64,000 nucleotides of DNA from Chrysomallon squamiferum (Eukaryota; Animalia; Mollusca): contig CM022672.1 of assembly GCA_012295275.1 (NCBI GenBank), forward strand, positions 16,988,001-17,052,000, read 5' to 3'. Each line of letters opens with the position of its first letter. Within the stretch, counting starts at the first letter, position 1. The notes below the pieces were generated by a model that had not been told where the DNA came from, did no database searches, and saw only the letters and a list, made by a program, of their open reading frames with translations. Positions 4,821 through 64,000 of this stretch are shown piece after piece. Both the position numbers and the translations under genes were made by a program.

Positions 4821-5450
4821 CAGTGGTACCTTGAATAACAAGTTTAATTCGTTCCGTGACCGACCTCTTAATTCAGTTTGCTCGTATATCAAATCAATGT
4901 TCCCAACTGAAATTCTTTGAAATACCATTAATCCGTTCCAACCCCCTATTAAAAAAACACCCACATTTTTCCACGTGTTTTTAAATAAGAAAAAATGTAT
5001 TTGTAAATGACAAATATTGTATAAAAAAAAAACAAAATAAAAGAGAATGTAAAGAAATAAACTGGTTTTGTAAAATGTACAGGGTTAGGGTTTTAACGCC
5101 TTTGGCTGGAGTTACAGCCTTTATCGACTCCTTCTGCTTCAGTGTGGTACATATCGTAGAAGTACTGCGCTCGTACTGCCTAGCCAAGTTGACCACCTGC
5201 ACACCTCGCTCATGTTTTTCTATGATTTCATGCTTTATTTCAATGGACATCATCCGCTTCTTCTTCTCAGCATTGTCCTTTGCATTCACTTTCTTAGGAT
5301 CCATGATCAGAAAAAAGAAATTTGGCAAAATACTGCATAAAACACAAGCACAACACAACAGAGATGCTTCCGCGGCGAGGTAACCACGTGAAGCAAACGA
5401 GTGAGACGCGGGATGCTGTGCGGATGTTGCGTTGTTCGTTGCGCACAAAT
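4821..5450 (-). mobile_element. Truncated Tigger/pogo DNA transposon with a CENP-B-type N-terminal HTH remnant
   Basis: TA|CAGTGGTACCT terminus at 4821; minus-strand MDPKKVNAKD..KKKRMMSIEIKHEIIEKHERG..LARQY..STSTICTTLK from 5304; second TIR not found. Confidence 0.82.
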
Positions 5451-9348: not shown

Positions 9349-45569
<36,221 letters not shown>

Positions 45570-53512: not shown

Positions 53513-53594
53513 TATAAAAAACACAGACACGTAGATTGACTTCACTTGGGAGAGTCCTGCTCTTGTGCCATACATTTTGTTTAGCAATATCCAG
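53513..53594 (+). promoter_or_regulatory. Gene 2 TATA box (53513), Inr-like TCACTT (53542) and non-coding first exon ending at CAG|GTAATA
   Basis: TATAAAA about 30 nt before the Inr-like motif; donor at 53595; acceptor TTAG at 53761-53764 just before the ATG. Confidence 0.55.
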
Positions 53595-53771
53595 GTAATA
53601 AACCTCTTTTTTTGTGGTAAGGTATTAACGAAATTTTACTTATATATTAGCAGTAACCTGTTTTATATTTGTGTAATTTAGTACTGTTATATTTTATACT
53701 CGTGTTTCAGTTATATTTTTGTCCTGTCGTAATTCGTAACTTGTGTATATCTCTTTTATTTTAGCCTTATC

Positions 53772-53838
53772 ATGGACGTCCGGTGGTTGGGATTCCTCTT
53801 TCTTGTGTGTCTTACATCTAGAGTCTGCCTCACACAGA
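53772..53838 (+). CDS. Gene 2 signal peptide exon (MDVRWLGFLFLVCLTSRVCLTQ)
   Basis: ATCATGG start context, hydrophobic core, phase 1 donor GTAAGA. Confidence 0.8.
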
Positions 53839-54061
53839 GTAAGATATTTATTATCACTTGAAATCTACTTTACAAATTAACACTGATTTATTTGATCAGT
53901 TGCACCTTCAGGATTGACTCTACTTTGATATTTTTCGTTTTCGACAGGAACACATGAAAGAATAATTAATATTATTTTCAGTAGTATTAGCTGTTTCTGG
54001 TCAAACTTTATAACTGGGTATACACTGAAGGATAGCACAGAAAGGTTTCAGAAAAGAGAGA

Positions 54062-54100
<39 letters not shown>

Positions 54101-54453
54101 GTTTTTGTTTTTTCTTTGTTTTTTGTTTTTTTAATGTTTTCAAACCGCCAATTGTAGGAAACGTAAAATACTTTTTTTTACATAAGATGAGACTAAAACT
54201 GATAATCGGTCAGCCATCAACAACTTGATGAAACAGCGAGTTTAAAAGAAATGGCGGCATCAAAATATCACGTGACTACTGTTGAAATTCCACACATAAA
54301 AATTGAGTTGTCGACGCGATTAGGTTGTTAAGTGAATTGATCTTTAGAGATTGTTTTAATTTCACCTTATGACGCCATTTATAATATTTTTAGTATATTT
54401 TTAAATGTTTAGACAGTTGTGTACTGCTTACTGGAGCAACAAAACAACAACAG

Positions 54454-54484
<31 letters not shown>

Positions 54485-55041
54485 GTAAATAAAAAGATAA
54501 ATTCAGCTCTAATATACATTATTTACGGTTTGGATAATGTAAATACAGGTAATAAAGAAAATATATAAAGGAAACTCCAACTTATTAACTTTGCATAATG
54601 TCTTAGATATTACAGAACACAAAAACACAGTCAGCAAAAATTATGATCCTGTACTGTAATATGTGCACAGTAATATGTAGTTTTGGATGTTATAAACACT
54701 AAAGCAATGAATAGTAACCAACGGCAGGAACGAGGATGAGACAAAGGAAAGGTAATGTTATTTGAGATGCTTGGACGCGATGATGACTTTCCAGAGCGAA
54801 AGCTCTCGTGTAATATATTTTACCGACTGGTCGGAGTCCTGGTCGTAAATCCGCACGGTCATTAAAAAAGTAGGTAGGTAAGTGAGGAGTGTCTGTATTT
54901 TATTGTCGACAGAAACAATTAAGACACTAACATTGATAGTTAAAAAAAGGTTTAGAGGGATAACTGTATGTAGTGAATGTATGAGCGAATTCATGACCTA
55001 CCACTTAGCACGGTAACCAATGAACCACATATATATCTAAG

Positions 55042-55094
<53 letters not shown>

Positions 55095-58000
55095 ATACAC
55101 ACCAGTTATCCCAGTTACAGAAATAAAAGAGAACTCTTACAAGATGAAAAATTATATTTGTTTGAGTTTTCATTTTATTATCATTATTTTATTTAATCAG
55201 GAATATGAAATTTAGATGGAAAGCCTATGACACATGTATATCGCGACGCAAACATTTCGATAGAGACACCTATTTTAAAAAATATTTTATTTTCAATAAT
55301 AACAACAACAGCAAAAATTGATTACGAGAATAATGAAAATCAATGGTGACGATGATACTGATAATGCTGATAATTAAAAACCAAACCGGACAAAGCCAAT
55401 TATTTTCAAAAATTATTCTAACTTAGAAGCCATTTAACTTTCCTTAAATAAATTTAGTTAAGTTTATAAAATGTTGTGCCTCACCTATTTCGTTTCATTT
55501 TACAATTATTTCAGTACCTGAATTTTATATGAAAGATGGAAAGGTCAGTGTTGCAGAAGAAGACGGTAAAGTCACAGTAACAGTGAAAAGAGACAAAGGT
55601 CCTGGCGTTGTCCTTCCTTCCATTACTGTGAAATTAGATGTTGTTGATAACACAGCAACATCAGCTGATTATAACGTCACTGAGAATCCCATTTTTGTTG
55701 AGATTAGAAAGGATCAGTTGGAATCTACAGCCGAAATCACAATAATAGATGACAATGTATGCATACTTAATTATAGACTTGCACGAACTCATAAATAAGT
55801 TAATGATTTTCAGAAAAGAGATGGTGTTTAAAAATGAGAACTTTTCGTTAGAAACAAGTTCTAATTAAAATATCAACAGGATTTTAAAATATTTAACAGG
55901 ATTTTTATTTATTTATTTAATTTATTTTCATTAATTATTATTATTATTATTGTTTAAAATTTATTGTTAGATAAAGCAAAACACTTTTTGCAAAAAGTAA
56001 AAAAATTGTTCAAAAACAAAAATTTGATATAAATATAGATTTTACATGTTTATTCATAGAAAAATATACATTCTAAATTTTAAATCCACAGCAAGAAGAA
56101 CCTAGTGAAACTTTTGAAGTGTCAATTAAACCTGATTCTACTTACACTGTTGGAGCCACAGCAAAGACTGTTGTTACGATAACTGACAACGATTGTAAGT
56201 GATGCAAACTCTCAGATATCTAAATTAGAAAATTAATTCAAGTACTTATATACGTGATATCATTTCTTTTCAAATACTGACATATTTTCTAACACTCATT
56301 TGTAGAAAAAGAAAAACACTCATTCCTGTTAATGTTATTAAAAAAATGTACGGTTTTCTTCTTTTTCAGTTTCAGCCATCAACATAGGAACACCTTCAGC
56401 GGTAGTTAATGAAGATGATGGAACGATATCTATTGCCATTGTAAGAACATTTCCAGACGATGGTGCTGTAACACCACTAACTGTGTACCTTGCGGTGACT
56501 GCTGGAACTGCAACTGCAAATGATGATTATGAAACACCTTCACCTTTGAGCATTGACTTTCCTTCTCCTTCTCCTGGCACAACATCGGATGAACAGTTGT
56601 TTAATATCACTATCAAACAAGATGATGTAAGCATCTTCTGAGTTTTTCTACAAACTTTAAATATTTTGTTATAAAGGTAGTTATGCTGTCATCGGTTTTA
56701 TTATATGAATTCAAAACAGCTGTTGATTCTCTGACATATATTTCGATTTAATAATTTCAGATTGATTTAGTTTGGTACATTTTAAGTGAAATATTTTATG
56801 TCAGGGTTAACTTTATTATTTTTTTTTCTGCTTCTTTCTCAGTTATTAGTTTTTGCCTGGTTCATACTATAAACTTCTATTTTCATTTTCAAAATAAAAG
56901 AGTTCACAGGATTGGACTTTTGAATTGGTTTTATTAAAGTAAATCTCTGAAAACTTAATTTGCCTTCTGCTTTTTCCATTATTCATTGTGTAAGGCAAAC
57001 ATTTCATGAAATTAATAAAATATTTAGAGATTCCAAACAACAGATGAAATAATTCATGGAATCAGTAAATAAATTCCTTAATATTTTCATGAAATAATGT
57101 CATTAAAAAAATAAAATAAAAATCTAGACAAATAATGTTACTTTAAAATCGAAAGTTCATAATAAACTAAAGTGTTGGCCATTTGTTGGCACAGTCTTCT
57201 TTAAGAACGAAACTCCATTTAAATGATAACATCTTGAGACGAAACTGTGAGGAAAAGCTGTTGACAAATTTGGTTAAATATTTCTGTGTTTTTGATCTTT
57301 TTGTTTGTACATGAAATAAAACACTACAGATCATTTTTTTAAAAATTTTATGAAACTTTATGCATTTTAGTAGATAATTCTTCATTTCGTCAAAATTCTT
57401 TCAAAATGTTTAGAGATTTTAGTGAACATAAAACGCCACTTCTTTCATATGTTTACATAATTTCTAATGTTACTGATTTTAATTTCAGTTGTTTGAACCA
57501 GATGAAACATTAACACTTAGTGTGAACGAGGTAGACTCTTACAAATTAGGAATGTCAAAAAGTATCGAAATAACAATTAAGAATGATGATGGTAAGTAAC
57601 TTGATACATAAGAAAATGCATGATTTTCATGATGTTTATTTCTGATTTTTAAGAGTTGTAGTATGTCTAAATACAGAATAGATTTTCTAAAGAAACCCAC
57701 TGTCTATGTTAGTAACAGTGACATTTATCAGAATAACCGATAGGTTAAATTTTCAATGTATTGTAGTCATCAATATTTATGTTATTCTTACACAATTGTT
57801 GTCAGAAGAGTGTGGAAATGAAACAGAGAATGAATTGAATGAATAAGAACACAGTTCCACTGTCAGAAACAGCTGTAAAAATTTCAGTGCTTGATTACTG
57901 ATAAGAAGAGAAGAAACGCCACTTTTATAACTTTATGCATTTTTCAAACAGCAAGGTATTTACTCTTCCCTAAACTACTATGCCTACATGGTGTCTGTCT

Positions 58001-61000
58001 AGTTGTACGTATATGTTTGTGTCTTTATTAATATAGATCTTTATGGATTTGTTTATGTGTACATGAACATTTGTGTGTTTGTGTATGTGTATCTATGTTT
58101 ATAGTTAGATAGATACACATCCCCATAAATACTTAAGCTTACAGTTAATATATTCACTTAATTATGTATATATTTCACAGTTCCAACAATATCACCGGAG
58201 ACACCAAATCCAACACACGAGTCTATTGGACCAACAGTTTTGACTGCAACAAGAACAAATAGACTGACTGGAGAATTCTCTCATGATCTTTCAATCTCTG
58301 ATGACACAGCTGTTGTAGGCAATGATTATGTTAAACCAGATGGAGCTAAATTTGTCTTTGCAAATGGAGAAGCCAAAAAATCGATTGAAAATGAGCATAA
58401 AGATGATATGGTAAGTTAAGCGAGTTAAATTTTCTATATATGTAAACTACAATTATATACTTTTCAAACAAAACAAAAAACGAAAAATGGAACTCTGTGG
58501 TAAAATTTTAAATTGAGTCTATTGAAAGCAGTCTTAAACTTCATAGACAGTTGTTGAAACAGCAAAAAAGTAACCTGAGTATCATAATTACTTAATTCAT
58601 TATTAATTAATTTCGTAATATAAATAATCCTCATTTAGAATTTTTTAAATATAACATTCTAGAGTTTAATATGTATTTTGTTTCCTAGTTCGAGAAAGAG
58701 ATTCTGGAGTAAACATGAGTTTATGATCGCATTACACTTAATATGAATATACATTTATACATAAGAAGTCGGGTATCATTCAGTTTATGTATCAAACTGA
58801 TTACCAAATTGGACACTGAGAGCTCAGTCTATGTTTTATGTATTATATTTATGATTCGGTTATATTAATCTTAACTCGTGGACATTTTTTGTATGTAAAA
58901 CTTTCTTCCGACATTAATGCCAAATTTTGAATATCCATTCCTACTATTACCCATTTCAGATAATTAAAAATTATCATATTAAAATACTTATCGAATACAC
59001 GGTCTCATACAAATACTTTTCTAAAATACATTTTCGATCATAAAACCCAATCCTTATATATAGGTTCATAATAATACTTATTTATAAACCAGCTTATGGC
59101 ACGAATTCACATTTCTAATATTCTCATTGTCAAAATAACAGACATTTACCAGCCTAACAGTATATGCTTTTGTTTAAATGCACCAGTTTACATAGGAATT
59201 AATCGAATACCTATGATACAGTAATAGTTATCAACAGATACAACAATATATACATATATTTGCATACACAGAATGATTTAGACTTAGAAGAGTTAGCTTC
59301 TGGAGAGAATGTGAGGTCCCTTGCTGATGTAGAAGATCTAGAAAGACAAATCTCCGACAACGAACAAAAGTTTTCGAAATTTTCAGGTGAGTATTCATAT
59401 ATAACATAACATTGACACTAAGTTCTTTTAATTTGTGAAACTGTATTATTACTCAGCACGCACACACATACACACATTATATTGTTTTGAGTATTTTTTT
59501 TAACTTTTATTTCAAACACCATTTTATGTTTTTCATTTTTTTTTTTCTTTTCTCTTTTTTTTTTTTTTAATGTGGCAGTATTAATTTCTTTCTTTTACTC
59601 TGTACATTGTATAGGATTCCATGAAACTATATTTGAGAAACACTCTTGCTGAACGAGAAATATATATTTGTTTTAATTATTTACACAGCACTAGTACGAT
59701 ATTATAACTGTTTTAAGGCAATATATTCAGACCATTGTTAAAAATATACAATCGAGTGGGTGTAGTATTACGGAAAAGTGGGTGCCTCAGCTGAAACTAG
59801 TTTAATAACATGTGACGCTATTAAGGGATGGTTATAACGTCTGTGTTCTTTCTCATGGAATACTAGTACGTTACAGGATTTTATTTCACTGTTTTAAATA
59901 CGTATTTTTATTTCACACAGATGAGCCCGGACAGCGAACCAAAAAAAGTGTTTTGAAGGCAGCCGAGCATTACAAATGGCCAAACACAACAATTGCAGTC
60001 ATTATACACGAAAGATACAGTAAGAAAAAACACTGTAATATATCACAATATTATTACAGACTTCGTGAAAACTAGAAGATTGAACACAGGTTAACCTCAA
60101 TACAAATAGGAATTAACTGGACATAAACTGTGCACGTAATGTGTACATGAGGTTTATAAAACCAAAGAAGCAAACTCCACAATATTTTCATGGACGTATT
60201 AATGATACTGAAACGAACAGTTATCTAGACGTAGTTTAGGGTTGATACTTTGTCTAAAGAGGTATTTGTTTATGTAAAGATCTGCTTACAGAAGATATAT
60301 GTGAATACCCAGAGCAATCGATACCTCACGTAATTCAAATAGTGATGAGCGTGGGTGAAAGGACTAAATTCAAGACATTTATTCAAATAGAAATACCTGG
60401 TTTACAGATGATATTATCTCAGGTTCTTTAAGCATTTTGTTGATATCAAATAAAAACAATTCTTAAAAGCCTTTTTTTATTTTAAATAAAGGACACACAC
60501 ACAAAAAAAATAATAAATAGGGTTAGATGATTAAAATATTATTTTATAACATTTGCGATTTAAATTTACGGTAGACACTTTCACCTCTATATTTGTCCTT
60601 TAAATACATATATATAATATATTTCAGCATCTGCTCAGAAAGAAAAACTAATGGACGGTATGAAACACTGGGAAAGCCATTCGTGTTTGAGATTCAACAT
60701 TGTGAAATCTCACATAGGCCCGCATATTAAGTTTGTCAAGGGAAACGGGTAAGTAATGCTATTTTTATGTTTATTGGCTATACTACTACTTCTACTGCCT
60801 AAATATAAAACCTACAGTTAATATTATTACTACCAAATCTGTTACATAGCCATTATTATTATAATTATTATTACAAATATCTCTACACTAATTGAAATGT
60901 ATACAATATGTATCTCACAAATTCAATTATTTGTTTAAAGTATGTGATTGTGGATTGGTATATTAACTGTAATTAGTACAATACACGTCTCACTGACAGA

Positions 61001-62346
61001 TTTACTTACAAATATATCCTAGTGTGAAATCACTGATGATTTGTGACCAGAAATAAAGGAATAAAGAAATATATACGAATACAGAAACAAACAACAACAC
61101 ACAAAACAATACATACACTTTTAAGATTAAATAAGAAATGCTGTTTCAGATGTTATTCTTCAACTGGGATGCAAAACAGACCAACAGGGCAAGATATTTC
61201 AATTACTTCAGGATGTATGTATGTAAGTGCATTTGTGTTTAGTGTCTTTTAAATGAAATGTATATATATATATATATATTATCCTACATGATTTAATGAA
61301 TATGTATTTTACACATAAACCGGTTATTTAACACATTAACGAATACAACTACATCGTTTAATATCTAAGATCTTTACAACATTTTTAATTTAATTCATTT
61401 GATTTTATTTTACTTAGCTCAATTTTGTATTTTATTTTTAATGTTTTAAAAGCATTGTTCTTTGTAATTAATAGTTTTATTTTCGTATAATTATTACAAA
61501 TTCTGTATACTTTTATAATTATCACTCTAATGCAAATTACTACTCCCTGAATTTTTCATATATATATATATTTAATTTTTTTTTTTTTTTTTTAAAATAA
61601 CAATATGATAACAAATTATTACATAATTCCCGTCTCAGCGATATCCAATAATTCAAAAAAAAAAAAAAAAAAAAAAACACATTTTCTTCTTTCAGTATAA
61701 AATAGGTTATTTACTGTTAATGTCCAGTTATTTCATTATATAGGATTAATAAATCATTTATTTATTTATTTGCTGCGATATATTGGCAAGAAACAAATGT
61801 TTAAGAATCATTCATTCATTCTTACATTTAGAAAGTACAATTAATATCTAATGAGTCACACTGGAAAAATAATTGTTCATGAAATGGAGAATCGACTGGG
61901 TTTAATATGCAGTGAATTTATTTGTTTATTTAGACTGGTACAATAGCTCATGAAATGGGACATACGCTGGGTCTATACCATGAGCAGGACCGCCCTGACA
62001 GAGACAAGTATATTACAGTAGTAGAAGACAAAATAGCAACAGGAAGCTTAGGCAACTACCAGAAACGAACGTGGGATAAAGTAAAAACCATGGGAATTCC
62101 GTATGACTACACTTCTTTACTGCACTACAGAGAATACGTGAGTACTTTGGATTTTCTTCTTTTATTACCAGACAAAAAATATTTTGATATATTTTTGATT
62201 GTGTGTTATTTCTTTATATGTGTGTATATGAGAAATGTGTTTATGAGAGATATTCTAATGTTTATTTGTGTGAAATTTATATAGAGTTAAGCAGACAGAA
62301 AGAAAGAACGGGAGAAGAGGCTGATATTAACAAGAGATGATGATAG

Positions 62347-62443
<97 letters not shown>

Positions 62444-63094
62444 TATAGGTATTTCACATATTTATGAAATATACACAAAAGTCTGTATATGGTCTGAATG
62501 AATCATTAATTTATGTAGAGTGAGAATTATCAAAACTGAAATATTTAGGCTATTTATTAATACATGAAAAGGCATGGCCGATCAGATAACTCTTTCATTA
62601 TGTATCTCACGATATAGAAACAAATATGAATAACAATACAATGTAAGTGAACTAACAGCGTGAAATATATAAGCTGATGTTTTTTGCAGTTCTTAATATG
62701 TCGCTAGGTTTTATATTCCATACTTTCACACCCAGTTATTGAAATACAAGCACACTCACAAAACAGTTTTTTCTTTTGTTTTCTATTGCTATAAGCGAAA
62801 CCGGTATTAATACAATAAAATGATTTAATTATTACATTACGAATAAAATATATATTTTCAAATTGTTTTTGTTATTAATTAAGACATATTTTCTGTCTCT
62901 CTATGTCTGTCTATCTGACTGTCCTGTTTTTCCATCTGTCAATTTAAACACTTAATATTCACATTTTCAGCAATTTTCAAAAGATGGAAGCAAAACTATT
63001 ATAACTGTAGACGATGACATGCATGAGACGGTTGGTAATAAGAGGAGGCTTTCTTTCTTTGATGCCAAGACGATTAACTATCAATACTGTACAG
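53772..63094 (+). CDS. Gene 2 (multi-exon span, 3'-incomplete): chimeric SP-Calx-beta x2.5-astacin metalloprotease
   Basis: 12 coding exons, all phase-compatible and stop-free (1738 nt); the last six are paralogues of gene 1 exons 3-8. Confidence 0.8.
55515..55756 (+). CDS. Gene 2 Calx-beta domain 1, first exon
   Basis: VSVAEEDGKVTVTVKR...DNTATSADY...EITIIDDN; phase 1-0. Confidence 0.9.
56092..56194 (+). CDS. Gene 2 Calx-beta domain 1, second exon
   Basis: QEEPSETFEVSI...VVTITDND; phase 0-1. Confidence 0.9.
56370..56626 (+). CDS. Gene 2 Calx-beta domain 2, first exon
   Basis: VVNEDDGTISIAIVR...AGTATANDDY...FNITIKQDD; alternative in-frame acceptor at 56376. Confidence 0.9.
57489..57591 (+). 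CDS. Gene 2 Calx-beta domain 2, second exon
   Basis: LFEPDETLTLSV...IEITIKNDD; 103 nt like its domain 1 counterpart. Confidence 0.9.
58181..58410 (+). CDS. Gene 2 Calx-beta domain 3, first exon only (partner exon absent)
   Basis: DDTAVVGNDY...FVFANGE..K....DD; phase 1-0; donor GTAAGT. Confidence 0.85.
59272..59386 (+). CDS. Gene 2 paralogue of gene 1 exon 3 (prodomain)
   Basis: NDLDLEELASGENV...; 115 nt, phase 0-1. Confidence 0.88.
59921..60019 (+). CDS. Gene 2 paralogue of exon 4 (RTKK, furin site lost)
   Basis: EPGQRTKKSVLKAAEHYKWP; 99 nt. Confidence 0.9.
60628..60748 (+). CDS. Gene 2 paralogue of exon 5 (astacin)
   Basis: GMKHWESHSCLRF; 121 nt. Confidence 0.9.
61150..61222 (+). CDS. 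Gene 2 paralogue of exon 6 (astacin edge strand GCYSSTG)
   Basis: 73 nt, phase 2-0. Confidence 0.9.
61934..62137 (+). CDS. Gene 2 paralogue of exon 7 (HEMGHTLGLYHE; SLLHY)
   Basis: 204 nt, zinc motif intact. Confidence 0.94.
62971..63094 (+). CDS. Gene 2 paralogue of exon 8 (end of astacin domain)
   Basis: 124 nt; the EGF exon is expected beyond the window end. Confidence 0.9.
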
Positions 63095-63139
63095 GTATTT
63101 ACATTGCTGTGTTGTACTGTTATCTTGCTGTCTCAGCAA

Positions 63140-64000
63140 ATCACTACTGTACAAATATAATATGATTTACAAATACTCTTCCACTGTCACTACAAATCAG
63201 GTGTTACATCATTTACTGACATAGTTCCATGTCCATTTTCGCTAGTACATTTTCCACAATTTATTGACATTGTTCCCTGTCAGTGTACCACGAAATGACA
63301 TTTTTCCAATACGACATTAACTGACACTATAACAACTGCACATGTATTGTACCAGTTACTGACACCGTTTTATCCTAAGAATAAAACAAACATTGCAGCA
63401 TGTACTGACACTAGTTACCATCAGTACAGTACAACACGTATTACATGTACAGACACTATTTACCAACAGTATAGCACAAAACATTTTTACATTTGCTGAC
63501 TCTATTTACGATCAGTATAGTACAAAACATTTTTACATTTACTGACAAGGTATACGATTATTATAGTACGAAACATTGTTACATTTACTGACACTGTTTA
63601 CGATCAATATAATACAAAACAGTTACATTTACTGACACTATTTACCATCAGTATATACAAAACATTGTTACATTTACTTACATACTATCTCCACTGTAAT
63701 AGATGTTCTTGTATTGTACAATTTACTCATACTATCCTACTATATTGTTCCGTTTACAGGCACTGCTCACTATCAGTATAGTACAAACACTGTATCATTT
63801 ACTGAAACTATCCTACTCTCTCTACAATGTAACAACTGTACACGTATTGTACCATTTTACTGACACTGTTCTGTTATCAGTGTATCACAAACCACTGCAG
63901 CATGTACAGATACAGGTCCATTGTCAGTGTAGTATAACTGGACCATTTATTCATATTAACTATTATCTCCACTATTATATAAAAAGTGTACATGTACTGT
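63140..64000 (+). repeat. Same minisatellite of about 45 bp in gene 2, with more regular units
   Basis: Recurrent TTACATTTACTGAC and TAGTACAAAAC motifs. Confidence 0.78.

Follow-up and report, generated by a model that had tools for sequence, protein, structure and literature searches.

A Calx-beta repeat gene joined in frame to a tandem copy of an astacin-like protease gene in the mollusc Chrysomallon squamiferum

Does the genome of Chrysomallon squamiferum (Mollusca) hold a genuine gene in which Calx-beta repeats run in frame into an astacin protease, and if so, what might its product do? We studied a window of 64,000 nucleotides (the whole stretch of DNA analysed: assembly GCA_012295275.1, contig CM022672.1, positions 16,988,001 to 17,052,000 of the forward strand; coordinates below count from its first letter). 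An earlier note, made from the letters alone, had described such a chimera at 53772-63094 on the + strand (gene 2) as a fusion to a duplicate of an astacin gene lying in the same window (gene 1). The twelve exons of gene 2, all bordered by GT and AG, indeed join into 1738 nt, or 579 codons, with zero stops; this open frame was read within the window, and the 3' end of the gene lies beyond it. A Pfam scan of 13 exon translations found the N-part of a Calx-beta domain in exons 2, 4 and 6 (E 2.5e-5 to 5.2e-5, each below the 27-bit cut-off) and Astacin (PF01400) in exons 9, 11 and 12, where exon 11 (87.8 bits) and exon 12 (29.8 bits) exceeded the curated cut-off of 22.5 and exon 9 (E 0.0085) stayed under it. 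Each Calx repeat is split by a phase-0 intron: exons 2 and 3, and exons 4 and 5, make whole repeats, and exon 6 is a half. Pfam matches and exon phases thus confirm that Calx-beta domains are fused to an astacin, the Calx part stopping in mid-domain at the phase 0 donor at 58410.

All features of gene 2 lie on the + strand. A TATAAA hexamer, found by sequence match, is present at 53513-53518 as a putative TATA box; the TATA box claimed earlier amounts to this hexamer only. It is followed by a putative intron in the 5' untranslated region, inferred from its GT..AG borders (53595-53764), and by exon 1 (53772-53838), which carries the ATG and a signal peptide predicted from hydrophobicity and ends in phase 1; the five most hydrophobic 11-residue windows of the chimeric protein all begin at residues 3-8. 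Domain 1 consists of exon 2 (55515-55756; N-part, Pfam PF03160 E 2.5e-5) and exon 3 (56092-56194; C-part, by alignment to repeats of the gastropod Gigantopelta aegis), and domain 2 of exon 4 (56370-56626; N-part, PF03160 E 2.8e-5) and exon 5 (57489-57591; C-part, by the same alignment). Exon 6 (58181-58410) is an orphan N-half derived from the parent's last repeat, and its donor, a perfect GTAAGT, leads across intron 6 to the acceptor of exon 7 (59272-59386), also in phase 0. Exon 7 encodes the C-terminal part of an astacin prosegment and is, as proposed, the paralogue of exon 3 of gene 1 (15449-15563), with 6 differences in 115 nt. Exon 8 (59921-60019) holds the end of the prosegment, with RTKK at 59935-59946, and the start of the catalytic domain, by alignment to gene 1. 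The domain continues through exon 9 (60628-60748), exon 10 (61150-61222; by alignment to gene 1 the most diverged, at 11/73 nt) and exon 11 (61934-62137; Astacin E 9.6e-25), in which alignment to BMP1 places the zinc motif (61949-61981), ExxRxDRD and the SLLHY turn (62114-62128), and it ends in exon 12 (62971-63094; Astacin E 5.7e-7), whose phase 1 donor is open toward the window end.

The fusion is real DNA. Seven DNA runs from one organism and three studies, none of them recorded as RNA, contain at least half of the words of 55450-59450, and one may be the source of the assembly; six of the seven were examined, with X5 left out. In all six, across the three studies, single contigs cross the breakpoint from Calx to astacin sequence (58542/5) with more than 80 letters on each side: 58399-58692 in X1, 58423-58692 in X6, 58413-58637 in X2 and X4, 58413-58626 in X3 and 58413-58628 in X7. 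These contigs differ from the window by 1-6 letters each, and those of X1 and X6 extend 30 letters beyond a second breakpoint, which is marginal by a 31-letter rule. Exon 6 of the window type is present in X2, X3, X4, X6 and X7 with 0-3 other letters. The contigs across the first breakpoint in six runs support the earlier view of the locus as a young in-frame chimera, not a misjoin.

How was the join made? The earlier note had intron 6 turning into a copy of gene 1's introns, which is correct and can be refined to two breakpoints and two source introns. The first part of intron 6 (58411-58542) is common to paralogue contigs of the Calx family, which match 58413-58542/5 at about 88% (16 other letters) and then diverge; breakpoint 1 lies at 58542-58545. 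The next 119 bp (58543-58661) are 91.6% identical to a piece of gene 1 intron 1 (11245-11363), and from 58663 to 59271 the intron is a copy of gene 1 intron 2, beginning at 14446. By self-comparison of the window, the copied stretch runs from 58663 to about 63870 and corresponds to 14446-22079 of gene 1, so breakpoint 2 omits about 3.08 kb of gene 1, including its exon 2 of 111 nt (phase 0-0). Loose ends occur at 58661 and 58663 and lead into gene 1 intron 1 and the end of gene 1 exon 2; together with the departure of the paralogues this identifies intron 6 as a Calx-family intron, followed by 119 bp of astacin intron 1 and then by astacin intron 2. That the 119-bp piece might be a common repeat was rejected, since there is one contig per run at 58549-58590 and the loose end runs on as gene 1 intron 1. 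An astacin copy with a first exon of its own was likewise rejected, self-comparison giving no match to gene 1 exons 1-2. Read-through of intron 6 from exon 6 would give Val-Ser-stop, and ATTAAA signals occur within the intron at 58963 and 58978.

The 3' parent is the neighbouring astacin gene 1 (9349-45165, +), which encodes a signal, a long prosegment, an astacin-like domain, EGF-like, CUB-like and Cys-rich exons and an array of TSP1 exons identified by Pfam; the EGF-like and CUB-like labels are our assumption from cysteine patterns. Introns of the two genes differ at 307/3824 aligned bases (8%) and by 45 indels whose length is not a multiple of three, and the six exons that the genes have in common show no indel. 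The zinc motif had been called intact, and the whole 19-residue stretch was found: HEMGHTLGLYH fits HExxHxxGxxH, and EQDRPDRD after the third histidine fits ExxRxDRD, a feature of the astacin family according to the available part of PMC9848320. An ESM Atlas search with exon 11 returned astacin clusters only, and word-based searches with exon 11 and with exon 4 gave no scoring match. Four catalytic-domain cysteines are present in the chimera (425, 447, 468 and 578; their disulfide pairing is inferred). The furin-type site before the mature start reads RTKR in gene 1 and RTKK in gene 2. We take the N-terminal subdomain of gene 2 (GCYSSTG, SGC) to be more canonical in appearance than that of gene 1 (GCGSPTG, SRC); searches of the PDB with the 24-residue exon 10 of each gene were uninformative for assigning changes to one copy.

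The 5' parent is a multi-copy family of Calx-beta repeat genes. In run X2 alone, four different sequences, some of which may be alleles, follow a donor like that of exon 6, which makes the parent a family. A search of 1.84 billion representatives with exon 4 returned 75 Calx-repeat proteins. By far the best match to domains 1-2 was XP_041379428.1 (P0044, named FREM3-like) of the vent gastropod G. aegis, with 38% identity over 286 residues and a Calx-beta match above the Pfam cut-off. A profile search gave 359 hits, and the 120 listed include another G. aegis protein, XP_041379155.1 (P0090, named ADGRV1-like), in whose sequence we read nine Calx repeats, a Cys-rich EGF-like part, KRRKRS and a hydrophobic segment; a ZP-N-like match is weak and under the cut-off (CUT_N E 0.0014), and no ZP chain is among its PDB hits. 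Exon 6 and the first half of repeat 9, the last in P0090, share 57% identity, the match being confined to residues 930-1006 of P0090. The closest models thus differ, P0090 for exon 6 and P0044 for domains 1 and 2. Both belong to the same Calx-beta family as the chimera and, unlike it, contain no astacin domain in either model; P0090 also differs from the chimera in running on into the second half of the repeat and into EGF-like, ZP-like and membrane segments. Neither that second half nor the EGF, ZP and membrane modules were found in the window, and the idea that the missing half domain or EGF/ZP exons lie elsewhere inside it was rejected by a search of the window. A Calx-array version of the EGFZP matrix proteins of molluscs is the probable parent. 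An AlphaFold single-sequence model of repeat 9 of P0090 had a pLDDT of 37 and was not used.

Some further observations concern this family. Despite their names, P0090 and P0044 resemble Calx-array proteins of an EGF, ZP-like, membrane-anchored type; P0044 ends half-way in its third repeat, on a 48-kb contig. Over 55450-59450, summed contig depth is much higher at exon 6 than at exon 5, and in X7 the paralogues of exon 2 have small deletions (55682-55686). The data suggest a Calx family with a shared last repeat and variable front repeats.

What became of the Calx part after the cut? Domains 1 and 2 are complete repeats and domain 3 is not, holding its N-half only; from the strand layout we assume that the half domain is without the last strands and their acidic residues. 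Domains 1-2 keep their hydrophobic cores (37/38 core columns hydrophobic, 1/38 polar; columns defined from the G. aegis repeats alone), versus 4/13 polar core positions in exon 6 (Fisher p 0.012). Paralogue contigs and G. aegis are hydrophobic at all four of these positions (58196, 58282-3, 58391 and 58397), which indicates that the polar changes are derived in exon 6. Taking the 14 sites that differ from the window among the paralogue matches listed (40 of 91), 14 random changes yield at least four polar core residues in 0.3% of simulations. The half domain likely serves as a linker. A change from Gly to Arg has given it a minimal R-T-N-R at residues 282-285. Domains 1 and 2 retain an acidic DDxxxExxE loop that aligns with IIDDDIFEEDE of NCX1 CBD1, and the tandem domains align with NCX1 CBD12 (profile E 1.7e-15).

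Is the chimera functional? Its open frame, the uneven spread of changes and the contrast between the cores speak for selection, and a dN/dS of 1.16 between the astacin copies speaks against it; on balance we consider it likely that gene 2 works as a chimera. In a neutral-drift simulation covering one lineage, the whole frame and the splice sites, survival of the frame was 0-1.2% at 4% divergence, 0.06-10% at 2% divergence and 3-33% at 1% divergence, each range spanning different discounts of the intron indel rate. The exons do not share the differences from gene 1 evenly (chi-square p 0.002), with residue changes at 17/89 positions in the N-terminal subdomain against 6/109 from exon 11, which holds the zinc motif, to the end (p 0.004); no significant cluster of differences emerged from a sliding-window test (p 0.15).

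Our preferred reading of what the protein does, for which we judge the chances to be evenly balanced, is that a member of the Calx family was joined via a phase-0 intron to a tandem astacin duplicate, and that the gene would be transcribed into a secreted precursor which its two whole Calx domains may dock in a calcium-rich extracellular matrix until activation. The Calx promoter and signal peptide would drive the protease, domains 1 and 2 would fold, bind Ca2+ and form a stiff rod, and the half domain, unable to fold, would become a polar linker. Furin requires arginine at P1. As RTKK has no P1 arginine, the chimera is likely to be secreted uncut and activated extracellularly: through the change from RTKR to RTKK the precursor would escape furin in the Golgi and retain its head, an extracellular protease cleaving after lysine would free the active catalytic part, and this part might then cut a matrix protein nearby. 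According to the available part of PMC9848320, astacin activity requires an N-terminus that is made by cleavage, buried and bound to the family glutamate. Because such a new N-terminus is required, everything upstream, the Calx head included, would be cut off on activation, and the head would act on the precursor only, which favours targeting over calcium sensing. Of the two roles proposed in the earlier note for the N-terminal module, Ca2+ sensing is not favoured for the active enzyme, the Calx domains being removed on activation; matrix binding is the better half and may apply to the precursor. An extended version, which we regard as doubtful, would have selection strip the exposed core of the half domain (4/13; neutral chance 0.003) and the furin site after the fusion, and would have a Ca2+-stiffened, Calx-headed precursor assemble with the Calx-EGF-ZP matrix of the parent family and, once activated, trim it.

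Several observations weigh against a functional chimera of this kind. The core test was post hoc, two of the four changes having prompted it, and the 14 sites of exon 6 among the matches listed comprise 11 nonsynonymous and 3 synonymous changes, a neutral-like ratio. No contig among the matches listed runs from exon 6 to exon 7. The Met-turn reads SLLHY, not SIMHY, in both genes, so that the Tyr is kept and Met is replaced by Leu; since both copies have SLLHY (20212-20226 in gene 1, 62114-62128 in gene 2), the Leu change is older than the duplication. This methionine is nearly invariant; its replacement by Leu is tolerated in MMP-2 and weakens protease C (PMC1266349, in the part available). 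The aspartate-switch motif FXGDI has no match in gene 1 or gene 2, and EVNDL, a degenerate sequence spanning exons 2 and 3 of gene 1, would be a guess at its equivalent; with SLLHY and without FXGDI we call the domain astacin-like, not canonical. Between the astacin copies there are 41 exonic differences in 736 nt (33 nonsynonymous, 8 synonymous), with a dN/dS of 1.16, and, in a comparison without an outgroup, this number agrees with what a neutral gene 2 next to a constrained gene 1 would give (expectation about 36). Gene conversion could be an alternative cause of the conserved 3' exons, and a lesion could lie in the 3' end of gene 2 beyond the window.

Gene 2 might instead be a dead or unspliced duplicate: the Calx exons would be silent or terminate in intron 6, and the astacin exons, without their own first two exons, would drift neutrally. 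The dN/dS of 1.16, the decay of exon 6, the loss of the furin site and the two ATTAAA signals in intron 6 all fit such a history, and the open frame is a weaker argument should the fusion postdate the duplication (as much as 10% survival at 2% divergence, and as much as 33% at 1%). However, the four core changes fixed in exon 6 speak for an old truncation, yet 1738 coding nucleotides have acquired neither a stop nor a frameshift and have lost no splice site. The donor at 58410 is perfect, and the differences are unevenly spread among the exons. We consider a dead duplicate unlikely, without regarding it as far-fetched.

Rather unlikely, too, is a pure promoter capture, in which the chimera would be useful only through its new promoter and signal peptide, the Calx part being a passenger that is cut off early. 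R-T-N-R at residues 282-285 could be cleaved within an unfolded linker, and astacin activation removes all upstream sequence anyway, as the available text of PMC9848320 has it. Against this, domains 1-2 have retained their cores and acidic loops, and the strong RTKR site was lost, not kept. RTNR followed by Leu is, moreover, a poor furin site. A calcium switch, in which Ca2+ on the Calx pair would control latency or activation of the protease as in the sodium/calcium exchanger, draws on the alignment with NCX1 CBD12 and on the partial loss of the prosegment, which may leave latency loose; we find it hardly probable, with a linker of about 120 residues, probably unfolded, between the Calx pair and the enzyme, with the head removed on activation, and with extracellular Ca2+ in marine invertebrates in the millimolar range, which would saturate the sites. 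An assembly misjoin of two unlinked loci, conceivable in that both halves occur repeatedly in the genome, is very unlikely to the point of being negligible, given that independently built contigs from six runs and three studies cross breakpoint 1 and those of X1 and X6 also pass breakpoint 2.

Has anything like the chimera been seen before? Drosophila jingwei and Sdic are reportedly young chimeric genes made by duplication and intron-mediated fusion, in which coding exons of one parent came under the promoter and 5' exons of the other and both parents persist. The present case, whose expression is a prediction, differs in being a DNA-based join from phase 0 to phase 0 that cuts a domain in half. 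The process is a known one, and the pairing of domains appears to be new. The earlier note knew of no Calx-beta-astacin architecture, and we found none either: 0/197 Calx relatives match an astacin domain at E up to 1, 0/120 listed of the 359 profile hits carry PF01400, and a metagenome scan with exon 11 gave at least 18 distant loci, none with Calx-beta similarity among the matches listed. No such protein was found in the literature searched, outside which most subscription papers lie. PMC9848320 surveys more than 25,000 astacins; the accessory domains named in its Figure 1 legend do not include Calx-beta, and 'calx' is absent from both of its supplements; in the available parts of PMC11788884, PMC6626399, PMC12146183, PMC5460417 and PMC11871041, Calx and astacin terms concern unrelated proteins or do not occur. 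With multidomain astacins (M12A; BMP1/tolloid, meprins, sea-urchin BP10/SpAN, nematode NAS) the chimera shares HExxHxxGxxH, ExxRxDRD, the Tyr ligand and four catalytic-domain cysteines, and the tail of gene 1 is of the EGF-CUB-TSP1 type found among them, whereas the chimera differs in the Met-turn Leu, the absence of FXGDI, a truncated prosegment and the lost P1 Arg of the furin site. A parallel to the pairing is found in bacterial M12B (reprolysin-like) peptidases (P0096 and P0182, from an ESM Atlas cluster of 81), which also combine a metzincin domain with Calx-beta repeats in one chain; these belong to another metzincin family, place the peptidase first and the Calx repeats after it, and show no close kinship, which suggests that the pairing arose independently.

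P0090, in turn, resembles EGFZP in its EGF, ZP-like, furin-site and membrane layout. As far as the available text of PMC9290575 goes, EGFZP and EGFL are molluscan shell-matrix proteins, and EGFL arose by partial duplication with loss of the anchor; Calx-beta has 0 occurrences in its main text. Compared with these proteins, the chimera has lost the EGF-ZP part in its entirety and acquired a protease. As a rule, domain shuffling is inferred a long time after it happened; at this locus the two parents, the two breakpoints and the subsequent changes are all legible base by base. If expressed, the gene would directly test how a chimera deals with a join through the middle of a folded domain and whether an astacin precursor can be targeted by an N-terminal module; if silent, it would be an ordinary by-product of duplication.

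Intron 12 of gene 2 (63095-64000, +) is by self-comparison a copy of gene 1 (21361 to about 22079); the next exon of gene 1 is EGF-like and lies near 22150, and its equivalent in gene 2 would fall just beyond the window. This last intron contains a 46-bp minisatellite of 6.5 copies (63388-63682), and related repeats occur in gene 1 at 21600-22080. The tail of gene 1 (25031-45165, +) consists of about 25 intact phase 1-1 TSP1 exons with broken copies interspersed (a frameshift near 33122, deletions at 34522, and decayed copies near 32900, 33900, 35277, 36274, 37270 and 39635), and the block 33114-38118 of this array is a recent internal duplication (80-92%). A Tc1/mariner-like element with long inverted ends (81%) occupies 18218-18996 in a gene 1 intron and is absent from the matching intron of gene 2; it presumably includes a C-terminal fragment of a transposase, judging by motif. 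We also take 4823-5450 (-) to be a fragment like the N-terminal DNA-binding part of a Tigger/pogo transposase. Gene 1 intron 2 carries an inverted pair (14723-14979 and 15190-15416; 79%), of which gene 2 has one arm only, at 58923-59254.

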